Shown: positions 52,317-57,566 of the stretch, one piece after another
How positions within the stretch are numbered: the first letter of the stretch is position 1
Layout of the letters: every line of letters begins with the position of its first letter
NCBI GenBank assembly: GCA_045806785.1
Contig: JBJMIR010000114.1
Coordinates: 10,913 to 74,912 of the forward strand
DNA length: 64,000 nt
Source: Propionibacteriaceae bacterium
GTDB lineage: Bacteria; Actinomycetota; Actinomycetes; Propionibacteriales; Propionibacteriaceae
Reading direction: 5' to 3'
Notes under the pieces: generated by a model
Told to the model about the DNA's origin: nothing
Database searches by the model: none
The model's input: the letters and a program-made list of their open reading frames with translations, nothing else
Position numbers and translations under genes: made by a program

Positions 52317-52829
52317 TCAGGTGTGATCTTCGACCAGGGCTGCATATCTCGTCAGGTATAGCGGCCAGCCCCGCTCTCCATCGGCCCCCTCGCTGACCGC
52401 CTCCCAGCCTGGACCGTGTCGCTCGATGTAGCGGTGTTCCAGCTCGACGCGGGTCCGCTGTGCGCTCTCAGCGAGAAACTTGACTTCGACCTCACTTGTC
52501 AGCGCCGGGTCGGTCTCCAGCTGCCACTGCGGGCTGATTCCCCAGCTGAACACCACCAAGTTCGGCGGTTCGTAGACCAAGACCCGGGCCCAATGGCACT
52601 CGCTGCCGTCTATGGCACGGTCGTAGATATGGCCGCCGACCCGCGGCTCGAAGACCGTCTCGGCGATCGGTGCCGCGAGCAGATTGTGCTCCGGCGGCTT
52701 GAAGTCACCAAAGCGCTCGGTGAATACCCGAAAGGCTCGGTCCACCGGGGTGTTCACCATGACCTGATGGCGAACCCCCGTGGACTGGGGCTGGGTGGAC
52801 TGGGGCTGGGTGGACTGGGGCTGGGTCAT
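52317..52829 (-). CDS. SRPBCC (Aha1/START-like) protein with an N-terminal (TQPQS)x3 repeat
   Basis: Contains VNTPVDRAFRVFTERFGDF .. GWEAV.. core. ATGA overlap with the arsR-like stop. Confidence 0.7.
   Translation of the reverse strand: MTQPQSTQPQSTQPQSTGVRHQVMVNTPVDRAFRVFTERFGDFKPPEHNLLAAPIAETVFEPRVGGHIYDRAIDGSECHWARVLVYEPPNLVVFSWGISPQWQLETDPALTSEVEVKFLAESAQRTRVELEHRYIERHGPGWEAVSEGADGERGWPLYLTRYAALVEDHT
52781..52825. repeat. Perfect 15-bp tandem repeat x3 (TGGACTGGGGCTGGG), in frame
   Basis: Copies at 52781-52795, 52796-52810 and 52811-52825. It encodes TQPQS three times at the N-terminus of the SRPBCC protein. Confidence 0.9.
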
Positions 52830-53149
52830 GAACTGTCCTCCGTCGTTTCTTCTGCAATTTCTGCGTAGCCGGCGAGCGCTCGCTGCCAAAAGGTGTCCAG
52901 CTGATCGCGCAGGGCGGCTACCGCAGCTGGGTTGAGCCGATAGATCCGTCTGGTACCGGACTGTCGCTCGGTGACCAGACCGGCGTCCTTCAGTACTTTC
53001 AGGTGTTGTGAGACCGCGGACCGAGTGACCGGCAGACGTTCCGCGATCTGCCCGACCGCCTGAGGCCTCTCGGCCAGAGAGGCAACGATGGTGCGCCGCG
53101 TACCGTCCGCCAATGCGTCCCAGGGATCCATTGATCGGTTAGTGTTCAC
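52826..53149 (-). CDS. ArsR/SmtB family transcriptional regulator
   Basis: Winged HTH VGQIAERLPVTRSAVSQHLKVLKDAGLV. The start is 53149 or 53131 (second Met). Confidence 0.85.
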   Translation of the reverse strand: MNTNRSMDPWDALADGTRRTIVASLAERPQAVGQIAERLPVTRSAVSQHLKVLKDAGLVTERQSGTRRIYRLNPAAVAALRDQLDTFWQRALAGYAEIAEETTEDSS

Positions 53150-53188: not shown

Positions 53189-54352
53189 TCAGCTACGCAA
53201 GGTTTTCAGCCTGCTGATCGCCTCATCGAGCACCTGCTGCTGCTTGCAGAAAGCCCAGCGCACGTACGGCCGACCCGCTTCAATGCGGTCGTAGAACACC
53301 TGATGAGGGATCGCCACGACTCCGCAGCGTGTGGGTAGATCCCGACAGAACTCCACGCTGTCGCTGTAACCCAGCGGCCGCACATCGGTGGTCATGAAGT
53401 ATGTGCCTCGAGGAATCACCGGTTCCAGCCCGATCGACCGCAACCCTTCGGCGAATTGATCACGCCGGTCTTGAAGATCAAGTCGAGCCTTCTCCACCCA
53501 CTCATCGCCCTCGTTGAGAGCGCAAGCAACGGCCGGTTGGAACGGCGCGCCAGAGACATAGCTCAGAAACTGCTTCACCGCGGTGATCTCGTTGATCAAC
53601 TCCGCAGTGCCAAGCGCCCAGCCGATCTTCCAGCCGGTCACCGAAAACGTCTTGCCTGCCGACGAGATACGCACGGTCCGTTCCCGCATTCCGGGGAAAC
53701 TCGCCAAGGGCAGGTGTTCGGCGTTATCGAAAGTCAGATGCTCATACACCTCGTCGCAGATAACCACCACATCGTGCTGCACGGCCAGTTCGGCGATCAA
53801 TGCAAGATCAGCGTGATCCAGCACGACTCCTGTCGGGTTATGCGGAGAGTTGATCAACAGCGCCTTGGTCTTGGGCGTGAACGCGGCTCGGATTTCGGCA
53901 TGGTCGAGCCGGAAGTCCGGTCCGAAGAGTCCCACGCCAACGCGTCGCCCGCCCGCCAGCTCGATCGATGCGGCGTAGGAGTCGTAGAAGGGCTCCAAGG
54001 CGATGACCTCGTCGCCTGGGTTGACAAATGCCAAGATCGACGCGGCTAACGCCTCGGTGGCACCCGTGGTGACCAGGACCTCCGTCTCCGGGTCGAAGCT
54101 CAGGCCGTACGTTCGGCTGCTGTGAGCGGCGATGGCCTGTCGCAGCGGCAGGATGCCGCGGCCTGGCGGGTACTGGTTGACACCACTGGCGATCGCCGTC
54201 CGGGCCTCCTCAAGCATGAAGACCGGGCCGTCGGTGTCTGGAAAGCCTTGACCGAGGTTGATCGACTGAGTGGCCAAGGCCCGTGCTGACATCTCGGCGA
54301 AGATGGTGGTCGCCGCCGAGCGAATCCGATCGGCTTTCCAGACAGACGGCAT
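53189..54352 (-). CDS. PLP-dependent class I/II aminotransferase (YbdL / kynurenine-aminotransferase-like; often annotated DapC in actinobacteria)
   Basis: INLGQGFPDTDGP N-terminal motif and SAGKTFSVTGWKIGW (PLP lysine region). 387 aa. Confidence 0.85.
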   Translation of the reverse strand: MPSVWKADRIRSAATTIFAEMSARALATQSINLGQGFPDTDGPVFMLEEARTAIASGVNQYPPGRGILPLRQAIAAHSSRTYGLSFDPETEVLVTTGATEALAASILAFVNPGDEVIALEPFYDSYAASIELAGGRRVGVGLFGPDFRLDHAEIRAAFTPKTKALLINSPHNPTGVVLDHADLALIAELAVQHDVVVICDEVYEHLTFDNAEHLPLASFPGMRERTVRISSAGKTFSVTGWKIGWALGTAELINEITAVKQFLSYVSGAPFQPAVACALNEGDEWVEKARLDLQDRRDQFAEGLRSIGLEPVIPRGTYFMTTDVRPLGYSDSVEFCRDLPTRCGVVAIPHQVFYDRIEAGRPYVRWAFCKQQQVLDEAISRLKTLRS

Positions 54353-54429
54353 AGGTCGACCCTAGCCAACGGCGGCGTGCATGAACGATCACGCATGACC
54401 TGCCGCAGCCAACCCTAATGCTCGAGCAT

Positions 54430-54520
54430 CAGTGCACTGTGAGAAGAAGTGCGCGCTTAAGTCGCCATTGAAAAATCTATTGACATATTAAGTGCAGGTA
54501 GAAATAATTAAGTGCACTTA
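54430..54520 (+). promoter_or_regulatory. Near-consensus sigma70-like promoter embedded in AAGTGC-type palindromes
   Basis: TTGACA (54480-54485), a 17-nt spacer, then AATAAT (54503-54508). Palindromes CAGTGCACTG (54430-54439) and TAAGTGCACTTA (54509-54520). ATTAAGTGCA occurs twice (54487-54496 and 54507-54516). Confidence 0.55.
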
Positions 54521-54551
54521 GCAGCGGTGGCTGCGGAGGGGAGGTGGGGAC

Positions 54552-54659
54552 ATGATCATTCAAGAACTATTCCGCCTTCTTGGCTTTCTGGTCACTTTGG
54601 TGCTCGTCTGCCTCATGATCGGCGCGATCCTAGGGATCTTGCTCCTCATGAGCTTCTGA
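54552..54659 (+). CDS. Small hydrophobic peptide, 35 aa (MIIQELFRLLGFLVTLVLVCLMIGAILGILLLMSF)
   Basis: Hand-translated. GGAGGGGAGGTGGGGA lies directly upstream of the ATG. One predicted TM helix. It is below the ORF-track cutoff. Confidence 0.45.
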   Translation: MIIQELFRLLGFLVTLVLVCLMIGAILGILLLMSF

Positions 54660-54671
54660 GTTGGAGTCCGG

Positions 54672-54773
54672 GTGAGCGTGACTGCGGCATCGAGCGTGGT
54701 ACTGGCGCTTCCCACAGGTTGCGGTCGCCCGCCGCAATTCGTTAGACAGTGGCGCGCATGGGGCTGTCTATGA
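54672..54773 (+). CDS. Second small ORF, 33 aa (VSVTAASSVVLALPTGCGRPPQFVRQWRAWGCL)
   Basis: GTG lies 5 nt after GGAG and 12 nt after the first small-ORF stop. It has a signal-peptide-like start with an imperfect lipobox (PTGC) and two Cys. Speculative. Confidence 0.25.
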   Translation: MSVTAASSVVLALPTGCGRPPQFVRQWRAWGCL

Positions 54774-54819
54774 GCGCGCTTAGCAAGTAAGCTAGCTGCT
54801 TAAGCGCGCACTTGTGCGC
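54774..54819. promoter_or_regulatory. Nested palindromes upstream of the XRE-type gene
   Basis: GCGCGCTTAGCA (54774-54785) faces TGCTTAAGCGCGC (54797-54809). GCGCAC-TT-GTGCGC is at 54806-54819. CTTAAGCGCGCACT (54799-54812) is the exact reverse complement of 54448-54461. Confidence 0.5.
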
Positions 54820-54852
54820 CCCTGACCCGACGAGCAGACATTGAGGTCCAAA

Positions 54853-55791
54853 ATGAAGAGCGTCACTGATGCCGACTTGGACGATCTAGGGCAGTTGCTC
54901 AAAAAGGCGCGAGAGCAGTCAGGGCTATCTCAGCGCAAGGCCGCTGAAGCTGCGAAAATTAGCCCGACCTACGTGCGGACTCTCGAATCTAGTAGCAATC
55001 CCAACACAAATAAGCCGTCGCGGCCGTCTCCGGAAGTGCTCTTGGCAATGGGCAATGCTTTGAAAGTTGATCCGGAGATTCTTTTCGACATGGCCGGCTA
55101 TGATCCCGAATTAACCAAGCAGGTTGCGCCAACGATCGGTGACTCTGCGCAAAGAAGTATCGACTCCGACTTAAGAAGGATGCGGGACGCGACCAAGAAA
55201 TTAGATCAGCGACACGACTTTATCAAGATGCAATCGGTCGAACGTTTCAGCAAGTTCACGAAGGAATTTCTAGCAATGGCCGACGGGACCTTCCGATGTC
55301 GGGCGGAGGAGGAGCCATACCTCACAAGAGTGGCCTACTGGCAGGCCAAGTCAACAATACGGGCCGTAAGCTATCAGGATGAGCAATGGTGGGAAAGTAA
55401 GCGTGGCCGCGACTATCTTAGGCTTCACGATGAAGTCCGCAAGAAGAACAATATAGAGATCACTCGTATCTTCTTGGTTCCCGAGGATAGGCAGCCGGAG
55501 CTGAAGAAGACATTCGAAAAGCATGTGGAGCTGGGGATATCTACATTTGTTATGTCCCCCCGCGACGTGGGGGTCGAGCTTTGTCGAGACCTTGTGCTCT
55601 TCGACGACGAGCTGCTTCGAGTTGGTGGCTCGCCACGAATTGACGATCTCAAGGCGGCTGAGTTTACTGATAATCGTGCTCGTATCGAACAAGCGCGTGG
55701 AGACTTTGAGGCTCTCCATCGAATTGCGAGCAACACTCCTACCGAAGCACAACACATACTCGACTTGATCGATTCAGGCACGCTGGCCTGA
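54853..55791 (+). CDS. XRE-family HTH protein fused to an unrecognised C-terminal alpha/beta domain (312 aa)
   Basis: HTH at LGQLLKKAREQSGLSQRKAAEAAKISPTYVRTLE. C-terminal strand/helix pattern (TIRAVSY, IEITRIFLV, ISTFVMS, RDLVLFDDELLRV). GAGG lies 6 nt before ATG 54853. Codon use is AT-shifted. Confidence 0.75.
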   Translation: MKSVTDADLDDLGQLLKKAREQSGLSQRKAAEAAKISPTYVRTLESSSNPNTNKPSRPSPEVLLAMGNALKVDPEILFDMAGYDPELTKQVAPTIGDSAQRSIDSDLRRMRDATKKLDQRHDFIKMQSVERFSKFTKEFLAMADGTFRCRAEEEPYLTRVAYWQAKSTIRAVSYQDEQWWESKRGRDYLRLHDEVRKKNNIEITRIFLVPEDRQPELKKTFEKHVELGISTFVMSPRDVGVELCRDLVLFDDELLRVGGSPRIDDLKAAEFTDNRARIEQARGDFEALHRIASNTPTEAQHILDLIDSGTLA

Positions 55792-55968
55792 AGATCGACC
55801 GCCTTCGTTATCACTCCAATCGCACATCGCCGAGTCGAGTGGCTTTCAACACACGAGCTGAGCAAACCCCTTAATGTCAGCCTCGTCGCGTGTGGCGGGG
55901 CAGGCGACTCACAAAGTGACGAGTGGGATGCCTGTTCAGAGCTAGGCAGTGCTTGTGGAGTCGGGGGA

Positions 55969-57087
55969 ATGGACACGTGTGTGATTGCTGCTGGTGCTTC
56001 GAAAGCGTCACAACTCGCGGGTCAACAGGTCGTTGTTGTAGGCGCTGGTGTGATTGGTCTGTCTACAGCTATCGAACTGCGGCTCGCGGGTGCGAACGTA
56101 ACGGTCTTCACATCACCGAACTACCCGATGGTCTCGCCAATGGCGTGCGCCCTATTCCTTCCGTGGATGGGACCGGACAGCGCTGTCCTCTGGAGTGGCC
56201 CTCTGGAGCGGGCAGTCGTGAATAGCTGGCACCGCTATGAATCGTTGCTGAATGAGTTCGGCACAACTGCCGGGATACGGTCCGCCACGAACCACGAGTA
56301 CTTAGGAGCTGGGGATCCCGATCCTCCTGACAGGCTTCGCTCTATTCTCACACCGTCCACCATATCACCCTGCAATGTGCAATTTGTCGGAAACTACTAT
56401 GACCGCGTTTGGAAATTCGAAACAATTGTAATTGACATGAGTTGCTATATGTCCTGGCTTGGCATGAAAGCATTGTCTCTGGGCATCGCTATCAAGAAGC
56501 AACATCTGGAATCCCTCAGCGATACTTTCGATCACGAGACGTATGTGATTGTCAATTGCTCCGGACTTGGTGCGAGGACGCTAGCTCCCGACAAGGCCGT
56601 GAGGCCGGTAAGGGGTCAAGTGCTTTTCTTTAAGCCAATAGATCAAGATGTCCTAATCAACTTCGTGGGGATTGGCATAGGCGAGTATTGCCTGATTCCG
56701 CGCATCACTGATGTGGGACTGGGAAGTTTGTTTGAGCAGGAAATCGATTGTGATGAGATTTGGCCCGGACGCTCAGAGCGTAATGAGAGAAGACTTTGGG
56801 CCGCACTCGACGCATTGGTTGAGTTATCTGGTGTGGATCGATCAGCGCTTGAGTTCTCCGGCCGAACGTCAGTTGGTCTTCGTCCTATTCGTGAAGGCGG
56901 TTACAGGCTAGAGGCGCTGTGGCATGGCGACCGTTTGGTCGTACACAATTATGGACATGGTGGCTTGGGAGTAACTGTGGCCTGGGGCTGCGCGAATCAG
57001 GTAGTTGATTTGATACGTAGAGAACTTGCGGGAACAGCGGCAGGAAATCGGGGCCATCGGCGTCCGGAAAGCCTCGACCGAGGTTGA
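55969..57087 (+). CDS. D-amino-acid oxidase (DAO) family FAD-dependent oxidoreductase
   Basis: Rossmann VVVVGAGVIGLSTA. VVHNYGHGGLGVTVAWGCA fits the classical DAO signature [LIVM](2)-H-[NHA]-Y-G-x-[GSA](2)-x-G-x5-G-x-A. The last 12 or so codons read antisense through the aminotransferase remnant. Confidence 0.8.
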   Translation: MDTCVIAAGASKASQLAGQQVVVVGAGVIGLSTAIELRLAGANVTVFTSPNYPMVSPMACALFLPWMGPDSAVLWSGPLERAVVNSWHRYESLLNEFGTTAGIRSATNHEYLGAGDPDPPDRLRSILTPSTISPCNVQFVGNYYDRVWKFETIVIDMSCYMSWLGMKALSLGIAIKKQHLESLSDTFDHETYVIVNCSGLGARTLAPDKAVRPVRGQVLFFKPIDQDVLINFVGIGIGEYCLIPRITDVGLGSLFEQEIDCDEIWPGRSERNERRLWAALDALVELSGVDRSALEFSGRTSVGLRPIREGGYRLEALWHGDRLVVHNYGHGGLGVTVAWGCANQVVDLIRRELAGTAAGNRGHRRPESLDRG

Positions 57088-57125
57088 TCGCCGGCCTGGC
57101 CAGGGCCCATGCGGACAACCCTAGT
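57051..57125 (-). pseudogene. Decayed 5' fragment of a second aminotransferase gene copy
   Basis: The minus strand reads ..LSAWALARPAINLGRGFPDADGP, against ..MSARALATQSINLGQGFPDTDGP in the intact gene. The 15-nt core GACCGAGGTTGATCG is shared (57076-57090 and 54250-54264). The fragment ends abruptly at the islet border. Confidence 0.65.
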
Positions 57126-57146
57126 TCGTCCGCATGCCTCACTGGC

Positions 57147-57566
57147 TCAACTGGCGTCCGCAAGGAAGGAGAGGCGTACCTCGCGGTTCGCGTTATCGAC
57201 GTTGAGATCGACCATGGCAACCGACTGCCACGTACCCAAGGCCATTTCGCCGCGAACGACCGGAATCGTGGCGTACGGCGCGATGAGCGCTGGCATCACA
57301 TGTGACCGGCCATGGCCGCGGGAGCCGTGGGCGTGTCGCCAGCGGTTGTCGGCGGGCAACAGGTCCCGCAGTACAGCCAGCAGGTCGTCGTCGCTGGCTG
57401 AGCCCAGTTCGATTAGCGCGATACCTGCGGTGGCGTGTGGGACGAACACGTGCAGCAGGCCGTCGCCGCCGGCCGCCGCATCGCGCAGAAAGGCCGCGCA
57501 CTGCGGGGTGAGATCGTGGACTGCTTCACTGCGTCCCGTGGTCACCTCGATCACCGTGCTCTTCAT
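57147..57566 (-). CDS. YjbQ/UPF0047 family protein (secondary thiamine-phosphate synthase-like)
   Basis: Contains LLHVFVPHATAGIALIE .. HGRSHVMPAL .. LGTWQSV, the conserved YjbQ pattern. 139 aa. Confidence 0.8.
   Translation of the reverse strand: MKSTVIEVTTGRSEAVHDLTPQCAAFLRDAAAGGDGLLHVFVPHATAGIALIELGSASDDDLLAVLRDLLPADNRWRHAHGSRGHGRSHVMPALIAPYATIPVVRGEMALGTWQSVAMVDLNVDNANREVRLSFLADAS

Follow-up and report, generated by a model that had tools for sequence, protein, structure and literature searches.

Segment 54430-54824 of the 64-kb window (the whole stretch of DNA that was analysed, to which all coordinates refer) is probably the cis-regulatory region of a two-gene module. As judged by its conservation in about 12 orthologous soil-metagenome loci, the segment would hold a guarded promoter, P1, for a 35-residue membrane peptide and a self-regulated promoter, P2, for the XRE-family regulator encoded directly downstream. 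All sequence features that an earlier, sequence-only reading of this DNA had listed for the segment were recovered at their positions and are non-random. The elements of the module are the following.

54430-54439, without strand: palindrome CAGTGCACTG with a GTGCAC core, weakly conserved and possibly an outlying operator
54447-54461, without strand: O1, the distal predicted operator upstream of the P1 -35 element, AAGTGCGCGCTTAAG; left arm of a 15-bp inverted repeat
54480-54508, plus strand: promoter P1, with -35 TTGACA (54480-54485), a 17-nt spacer and -10 AATAAT (54503-54508), matching 11 of 12 consensus positions
54488-54500, without strand: O2, a predicted operator half-palindrome in the P1 spacer, TTAAGTGCAGGTA; site kept in orthologues
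54509-54520, without strand: O3, predicted operator, the perfect palindrome TAAGTGCACTTA right after the -10 element and over the predicted start
54521-54551, plus strand: 5' untranslated region of the peptide gene, with a stem-loop and a Shine-Dalgarno run
54552-54659, plus strand: gene for the 35-residue single-pass membrane peptide MIIQELFRLLGFLVTLVLVCLMIGAILGILLLMSF, with an ATG start, a conserved frame and the Shine-Dalgarno sequence GGAGGGGAGGTGGGGA
54672-54773, plus strand: 33-codon open reading frame with a GTG start, most likely a spacer of variable length that separates the peptide gene from P2
54771-54784, without strand: left arm of P2, TGAGCGCGCTTAGC, in the place of a -35 element; arm columns invariant in the 11-sequence alignment A3
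54788-54793, plus strand: P2 -10 hexamer TAAGCT (TAnnnT type), at a fixed place between the arms
54798-54813, without strand: right arm of P2, GCTTAAGCGCGCACTT, over the predicted start and conserved in orthologues; right arm of the 15-bp repeat
54853-55791, plus strand: gene for the XRE-family regulator (312 residues; Pfam HTH_31/HTH_3), starting with the ATG at 54853

P1 is the sole sigma-70-like match on either strand between 54200 and 56100, and its predicted start lies near 54515. This TTGACA-17-AATAAT promoter had been proposed in the sequence-only reading, and its -35 element, spacer length and -10 element are retained in nine orthologous loci (TTGACA/T, a 17-18 nt spacer, NAnAAT). Each of the nine carries a core palindrome in the spacer, at least one upstream and one directly after the -10 element, where a palindrome had been noted in the window. 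The recurrence of the motif was likewise borne out, as the same GYGCRC-core sites stand at several positions of the segment. In orthologues, the O2 position reads TTAAGCGCAG, GATGCGCAC, GTAAGCGCGCAC, TTATGCGCGCAT or CTATGCGCGCAC and the O3 position TAAGTGCACTTA, TAAGTGCACATA, CTAAGTGCGCATAG, CATGCGCATAG or CAATGCGCATAG. All of them also have an operator-like site 20-40 bp ahead of the -35 element, with a drifting sequence (ATAGCGCGCTTAGCT in locus L015, AAGTCCGCACTTAAG in L053), and the counterpart of the palindrome at 54430-54439 in L053-L055 is only the loose equivalent TCTGCGCAGT. The centre of O3 is 20 bp from that of O2 and 62 bp from that of O1, O1 and O2 are 42 bp apart and the two arms of P2 31 bp; the spacings of 42, 20 and 31 bp are near-integral numbers of helical turns.

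The motif is concentrated in the segment. ATTAAGTGCA is present in two copies, at 54487 and 54507, and all three occurrences of TAAGTGCA in the window fall here (0.47 expected; none of 100 shuffles reached three). AAGYGC/GCRCTT hexamers occur 56 times in the 64 kb and nine times in these 395 bp, against about 0.35 expected by length; every good match to the 10- and 12-bp palindromes in a scan of the 64 kb also falls here. No operator copies were found before the downstream oxidoreductase gene (55792-55968) or elsewhere in the 64-kb window.

P2 shows a stricter architecture. The left and right GYGCRC cores are located 77-84 nt and 47-54 nt upstream of the XRE start, respectively, in 8/8 orthologues, and the arm cores are 30-31 bp apart in all orthologues. 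The invariant columns of alignment A3 are the arms TGAGCGCGCTTAGC ... GCTAAGCGCGCACT, the T-A...T hexamer and part of the Shine-Dalgarno sequence; the remainder has diverged, with a mean column identity of 51% over the 11 sequences. The first T, the A and the final T of the -10 hexamer are invariant in ten of 11 orthologues (TAAGCT, TAGGCT, TATGCT, TAGACT or TAGTGT), the sequence aligned there in L046 being without TAnnnT. L046 has GTGCAC in both arms and L017 ATAGCC in both, and such a joint switch is as expected if one protein reads both arms. In four of the 11 sequences the core-adjacent position is A or T regardless of complementarity, which fits read-out by a protein better than RNA pairing.

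Transcription was followed in assembled soil-metatranscriptome contigs, which are strand-less and for which depth is a poor measure. The regulator gene is transcribed: contigs cover it in 15 of the 16 runs searched over 53900-57300, often including the start of the oxidoreductase gene. The leftmost of these contigs begin at 54811 (X1) and 54822 (X5), 10-20 nt past the predicted P2 start. A contig spanning 55541-56218 crosses the junction between the regulator and oxidoreductase genes, which are probably co-transcribed. A search aimed at 54440-54800 yielded only two runs, whose contigs (X25 and X8) cover 54466-54654 and 54461-54598 at depths of 7 and 13. In one of them the peptide-gene region was the only covered part of 3.4 kb, so that carry-over of DNA is unlikely. 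The ends of these contigs coincide with strain polymorphisms (54465 in L001; the stop-codon region in P0033) and are therefore not transcript ends. An adapter remnant in contig X8 retained the 13 nt common to both adapters and hence gave no strand information.

The conserved repeat at 54771-54813 might alternatively function as an RNA hairpin, either terminating or stabilising the peptide mRNA at its 3' end or acting as an attenuator ahead of the regulator gene; we consider this quite unlikely. In RNAalifold the arms pair in each of the 11 sequences, four of the pairs showing double changes, and none of the contigs from the 16 runs covers 54655-54810. However, the covariation term amounts to only -0.46 kcal/mol, the core-adjacent base is non-complementary in the four sequences mentioned above, and two conserved triplets, a TGA ahead of the left arm and an ACT behind the right one, are unable to pair with one another. 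The loop would carry the TAnnnT hexamer at a fixed position, a U-tract follows the stem in no orthologue, and the RNA of 54650-54800 folds no better than shuffled sequences (z = +0.4). Moreover, RNA of the XRE gene starts just past the right arm, and single copies of the motif, without a pairing partner, are found within and near P1, also ahead of the -35 element.

The regulator gene is preceded by a conserved GAGG 7 nt upstream of its ATG. The protein consists of an XRE helix-turn-helix (residues ~6-81), two long helices (95-143) and an alpha/beta domain resembling phospholipase D (PLD; ~146-310). Pfam recognised the helix-turn-helix only (HTH_31, 1.7e-10; HTH_3, 4e-9). In an AlphaFold2 model built with 19 sequences (mean pLDDT 87.7), the C-terminal domain is a seven-stranded alpha/beta fold. 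Foldseek related the helix-turn-helix to C.AhdI, ClgR, SinR and CapH, the alpha/beta domain to the phospholipase D superfamily (Nuc with a TM-score of 0.67, NucT, Zucchini and PLD3) and the whole chain to the archaeal TrmBL2 and TrmB. An 80%-identical relative, P0003, scores 24.9 against DUF6879 (PF21806; gathering cut-off 23.9), and wider relatives score 16.8-20.2, below the cut-off. Of the HxKxxxxD motif only the histidine, H224, is invariant; the residues that follow are V-E-L-G-I, without lysine or aspartate at the motif positions. With only the histidine left, binding is a likelier role than catalysis, and the C-terminal half is probably a non-catalytic PLD-like domain of the DUF6879 type. 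A highly conserved, unstructured loop within the helix-turn-helix, NPNTxKPSRPS, may extend the DNA contacts.

Twenty-one relatives of the regulator were detectable in a collection of 5.8 billion proteins. An exhaustive profile search retrieved about 20 full-length clusters together with several hundred proteins that have only the helices and the PLD-like domain. Among ten of the latter that were examined, the helix-turn-helix is replaced by two N-terminal transmembrane helices in six, and a nucleotide cyclase domain is present in one. Such membrane-anchor and cyclase fusions fit a signalling domain, and the module of coiled coil and PLD-like domain seems to represent an uncharacterised family of this kind. 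Across P0069-P0082 and P0096 the module carries the motifs SYQDExWW, RIF, H..G and RDFVIYD; its fusions to two transmembrane helices are commoner than those to a helix-turn-helix, and it is once joined to an adenylate/guanylate cyclase. Distant XRE-DUF6879 genes with 38-44% identity (L047, 3001-6721; L049, 3001-6535) have no peptide gene. They are followed by an operon for an unknown protein of 212-229 residues, a 2-hydroxyacid dehydrogenase and a DAO oxidase, and L043 has an aminotransferase and a 2-hydroxyacid dehydrogenase downstream instead. The operons with 2-hydroxyacid dehydrogenase and DAO oxidase behind these distant genes hint at a metabolite as signal.

Two other assignments of the regulator were discarded. 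A defence system was dropped since PADLOC returned only generic helix-turn-helix matches (CapH, HTH_VI, control protein) and defence partner genes were absent. A restriction-modification C protein does not agree with the length of 312 instead of ~80 residues or with aminotransferase, oxidoreductase and YjbQ genes as neighbours, and the PADLOC control-protein match was confined to the helix-turn-helix (E = 0.0097).

The XRE protein had been named earlier as the candidate binder of the palindromes, and this proposal gained weight from the two motif arms that bracket the -10 element of its own promoter at a fixed position in 11 orthologues. The palindromic sites overlap core elements of both the regulator's own and the target promoter, at positions conserved in 8-11 orthologues, and binding of the regulator to them is probable on these comparative grounds. 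We propose that the regulator would be made from its own weak promoter P2, where the arms GAGCGCGCTTAGC / GCTTAAGCGCGCAC would allow it to limit its own synthesis. The same protein would occupy the three GYGCRC-core sites of P1 (upstream of the -35 element, in the spacer and at the start site), which together would shut a near-consensus promoter followed by a strong ribosome-binding site. A signal received at the C-terminal domain would release the protein, P1 would fire and the peptide would be made. As no plus-strand terminator-like site was found between the peptide gene and P2, read-through into the regulator gene (and the oxidoreductase gene) would then restore repression. Repression rather than activation, the signal, the read-through and the role of the peptide are what we infer from this arrangement; looping between the two ends is a possibility.

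Several points weigh against this proposal. The sites were assigned to the XRE protein from co-conservation, and their definition is ambiguous, with 10-bp AAGTGCACTT and 12-bp AAGTGCGCGCTT palindromes coexisting. Both peptide contigs, strand-less as they are, start 50 nt or more before the predicted P1 start, and an additional upstream promoter or an antisense transcript over the peptide gene may exist. How rarely peptide RNA was detected is hard to interpret, because the target is short and the choice of runs is a further confounder. Finally, the C-terminal domain of the window's own regulator has no DUF6879 match in Pfam even at E <= 10; only its relatives match.

The most conspicuous feature of the segment had been described as a 14-bp inverted repeat, AGTGCGCGCTTAAG at 54448-54461 with its reverse complement at 54799-54812. 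The repeat is present and one base longer: 15 bp are perfectly inverted between 54447-54461 (AAGTGCGCGCTTAAG) and 54799-54813 (CTTAAGCGCGCACTT), and the arms are separated by 337 bp. Allowing up to two mismatches, the 15-mer occurs only twice in the 64-kb window, and not one of 100 shuffles that preserved dinucleotides produced two or more copies. What had been missed is a second, tighter inverted repeat within the right end, GCGCGCTTA at 54774-54782 and TAAGCGCGC at 54801-54809 with 18 nt between them. As far as the alignments tell, this tighter repeat is the evolutionarily conserved unit, not the long-range 15-bp frame. The frame, by the same comparison, is lineage-specific and is composed of the distal P1 operator and the proximal P2 operator, which in this lineage carry one and the same 15-mer in inverted orientation. 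Their counterparts in L015 have 11 bp in common. In the closest relatives, L053-L055, O1 reads AAGTCCGCACTTAAG and has lost complementarity to the right arm of P2; the left end of the supposed frame is thus its least conserved operator. On this comparison the perfect repeat is a by-product of operator reuse; it could support looping.

The same ends had also been read as the termini of a cassette or miniature non-autonomous transposable element carrying both small open reading frames, an explanation that is highly improbable. The perfect repeat enclosing 337 bp would suit such an element, as would the composition of the surroundings, since a stretch of 2.7 kb with a guanine-plus-cytosine (GC) content of about 53-56%, against 62.5% for the window, starts at this segment. 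However, the flanks of the repeat (CTGTGAGAAG on the left, GTGCGCCCCT on the right) have nothing in common that would represent a target-site duplication. The search for other copies of the termini that had been suggested gave none further in the 64 kb at two mismatches. The unit is syntenic, occupying the same locus in all relatives examined without presence/absence polymorphism, and the right arm belongs to the conserved promoter-bracketing pair, whereas the sequence of the left one has drifted in close relatives. Reuse of an operator can hence produce a striking perfect inverted repeat, which need not mark the end of a mobile element.

On comparative evidence, the 35-codon reading frame is a real gene. 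Loss of this frame in homologous regions had been named as an observation that would speak against a small-peptide cassette; the frame is conserved in the homologous loci. All 24 computable pairwise ratios of nonsynonymous to synonymous substitution rates are below 1 (0.13-0.86), a purine-rich Shine-Dalgarno sequence precedes the gene in 8/8 orthologues (GGAGGGGAGGTGGGGA at 54535-54550 in the window), and at least 24 metagenomic contigs encode the identical peptide within an unchanged gene order. The consensus of eight orthologues, x-E/D-(V/L/I)-x-G-(F/L)-L-V-(K/T)-L-(A/V)-L-x-x-L-x-(I/V)-G-x-(I/V)-(L/F)-G, shows a conserved acidic residue, G-F/L-L and a GxxxG motif formed by G25 and G29, which are invariant along with G12, L19 and L22. 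The C-terminal tails comprise 0-30 residues, vary in length and sequence and lack a charged C-terminus. A profile search from the orthologue alignment delineated a family of about 25 protein clusters, all unnamed. The earlier statement that no family is recognisable was upheld by Pfam, NCBIfam and PADLOC, none of which gave a match.

The peptide mRNA shows further peculiarities. A short stem-loop, GCAGC-GGTG-GCTGC (54521-54534), lies at the extreme 5' end of the predicted transcript, and a stem of other sequence was read by eye at this position in L053, L054 and L015. In L044, four tandem copies of a 30-nt unit encoding MAVRAPHIQT (~590-720) are located between P1 and the peptide gene and lengthen the leader to more than 400 nt.

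The 33-codon open reading frame exists as described in the sequence-only reading but is not conserved as a gene. In tblastn it matched only the closest relatives L053-L055, over 18 residues, and it was absent from L015, L052, L040, L042, L017, L044 and L046. In L015 the peptide reading frame continues through this space, and the distance between peptide gene and P2 varies from 18 to 135 nt among orthologues. The frame is most likely not a gene and merely a spacer.

For the role of the peptide, our preferred if tentative guess is an effector that acts on the membrane and must be kept from being expressed in a burst. A holin, one of the suggestions made earlier, is not supported, for the peptide has no charged tail, no lysin or phage genes are nearby and the locus is chromosomal and syntenic. 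The other suggestion, a type-I-like membrane toxin, would imply control mainly by antisense RNA with the palindromes as a second layer, in the way that LexA is reportedly a second control layer for TisB and DinQ. The size of the peptide and its hydrophobic core (Kyte-Doolittle value of 3.0) agree with the small hydrophobic peptides of type I systems. The two contigs over 54461-54654 extend 50-90 nt beyond the P1 start on its upstream side, which would be expected of an antisense RNA, and their depth (7-13) exceeds that of neighbouring genes. Yet these contigs carry no strand information, no minus-strand promoter-like site was detected in 54200-56100, and the minus-strand TAGCTT inside P2 is not retained in orthologues. 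Rfam gave only chance-level matches for the region at E <= 1 and for the whole window at gathering thresholds, and the uncharged, variable tail also disagrees with a type-I-like toxin, a reading that we regard as unlikely.

The peptide could instead be a membrane partner or anti-repressor that tethers or inactivates the regulator and produces a bistable switch like SinI-SinR, which seems rather unlikely. In sinI-sinR a small gene with its own promoter lies directly upstream of the regulator gene. The module shares this layout, and the peptide-regulator pair is strictly co-inherited. Foldseek paired the regulator's helix-turn-helix with SinR of the SinR/SinI complex (1b0n), and in most of the wider relatives the coiled-coil plus PLD-like module is tied to the membrane by two transmembrane helices at the N-terminus, so that it would often act there. 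The peptide, however, has no detectable homology to these anchors (hhalign probability of 3%), and the more distant XRE-DUF6879 regulators do without it. In such a membrane-coupled switch, escape of P1 would let the GxxxG peptide oligomerise and capture or inactivate the regulator via its coiled-coil/PLD-like module, resulting in positive feedback and bistability. We give this course of events equally little credence; if true, it would be a previously unrecognised, membrane-bound version of SinI/SinR.

The proposed regulation, with a repressed peptide promoter and an autoregulated regulator promoter, resembles several known systems in part. XRE regulators with a sensor domain repress genes in their immediate vicinity (PMC7901475). 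Regulators of the XRE-cupin type such as ErfA, PsdR and PauR of Pseudomonas also combine an N-terminal XRE helix-turn-helix with a C-terminal domain that does not bind DNA, are encoded beside their targets and have palindromic sites over the target promoters (PMC7901475). Their neighbours include enzymes of amino and keto acids, comparable to the aminotransferase and DAO oxidase of our locus and the 2-hydroxyacid dehydrogenase of distant relatives. In contrast, the sensor of the present regulator is a PLD-like, DUF6879-type domain instead of a cupin, and its best-conserved target is a 35-residue membrane peptide, not an enzyme operon. RcoLS20 of the Bacillus plasmid pLS20 is an XRE-type repressor with multiple operators, looping and autoregulation (PMC4207663). 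Through several cooperative sites in two operator regions it tightly represses a strong promoter and autoregulates its own weak one, as we propose for the present regulator. The pLS20 promoters are divergent and overlapping with operators ~85 bp apart, whereas P1 and P2 are arranged in tandem ~290 bp from each other, where looping is possible, and the present regulator is chromosomal and without a link to conjugation.

TrmB and TrmBL2 consist of a DNA-binding domain joined by a long helix to a PLD-like effector domain (PMC4158304). They share the overall plan with a dimerising helix and were the top Foldseek matches (PDB 5bpi and 2f5t; E = 1e-6). TrmB differs in its winged helix (PF01978) in place of an XRE helix-turn-helix, and no sequence-level match to TrmB domains was obtained. 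Global TM-scores of just 0.33-0.40 imply that the resemblance holds per domain. TisB, DinQ and other small hydrophobic toxins (PMC8309996) resemble the peptide in length (~30-60 residues) and in having a single transmembrane helix, a strong ribosome-binding site and a promoter that is, or here would be, kept silent. The peptide is similar in sequence to no known family and differs from these toxins in its conserved GxxxG core and its variable, uncharged tail. Rgg/SHP and other RRNPP proteins are peptide-sensing regulators. The pairing of an XRE helix-turn-helix regulator of ~300 residues with a neighbouring short hydrophobic peptide gene recalls Rgg/SHP. However, the C-terminal domain is alpha/beta and PLD-like here instead of all-helical and of the TPR type, the conserved part of the peptide is its N-terminal portion and transmembrane core and not a C-terminal pheromone, and no processing or transport genes are nearby.

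A full-text literature search across 8 million papers found no mention of the regulator's C-terminal DUF domain, nor was a characterised example of an XRE helix-turn-helix combined with a PLD-like domain encountered. The regulatory logic, a local XRE repressor with repeated operators, is ordinary and the components are undescribed, namely the peptide family and the XRE-PLD-like/DUF6879 regulator. With five sites and two promoters in 400 bp, the locus offers a compact test bed. It could reveal how a PLD-like sensor controls DNA binding and what role a co-inherited small membrane peptide has.

The module is flanked by two genes for enzymes.

53189-54352, minus strand: class I/II aminotransferase, the left neighbour
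55969-57087, plus strand: flavin adenine dinucleotide-dependent oxidoreductase of the DAO family (Pfam DAO, 2e-23), downstream of the regulator gene

Beyond the oxidoreductase gene follow a minus-strand YjbQ/UPF0047 gene and an aldehyde dehydrogenase gene. The usual gene order is ClpB, CorA, spermidine-synthase-like protein, aminotransferase (opposite strand), peptide gene, regulator, a variable piece and aldehyde dehydrogenase. In loci with 57-90% regulator identity, the chromosomal position of the peptide gene and of the two promoters is unchanged. Wherever the regulator is at least 57% identical and upstream sequence is present, a same-strand small hydrophobic open reading frame directly precedes it in every locus examined. 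In L016 (62% identical) this frame encodes a different hydrophobic peptide outside the peptide family, ~290 nt before the regulator start. The shared neighbourhood implies that the peptide-regulator pair is a stable chromosomal module and not a recent insertion. From this synteny, the module is considered to be vertically inherited in a clade of uncultured high-GC soil bacteria; more distant relatives of the regulator were found in metagenome-assembled genomes of Solirubrobacteraceae and Acidimicrobiales.

The oxidoreductase gene is a variable passenger that is absent from L040, L053 and L054. A recent insertion of the whole low-GC stretch was rejected for the syntenic peptide-regulator pair and kept for the oxidoreductase segment only. 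A 78-bp copy (57040-57117; 81% identical, same orientation) of 54214-54291, which corresponds to aminotransferase codons ~21-46, lies within the 3'-terminal part of the oxidoreductase gene, adjacent to YjbQ, and occurs only in the oxidoreductase-bearing loci (the window, L001 and L002). The oxidoreductase segment was probably acquired by recombination with a donor that had an adjacent aminotransferase gene.

On the left side of the segment, GACCCTAG (54353-54367, minus strand) was read as a TAGGGT -10 element 6-7 nt before the aminotransferase ATG and is conserved in ten of ten loci, which suggests that the aminotransferase mRNA may be leaderless. This minus-strand promoter would not overlap the operators. 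In L053 (3029-3657 of a 177-kb ENA contig), the aminotransferase was called as two fragments of 153 and 56 residues, reflecting either decay or frameshift errors of long reads. Beyond the aminotransferase gene, an ArsR-type regulator and an SRPBCC/AHSA1-like protein are encoded with a 64-nt overlap (52317-53149, minus strand). The latter protein opens with three TQPQS repeats, and the ArsR-SRPBCC pair is absent from the syntenic loci L041 and L054.

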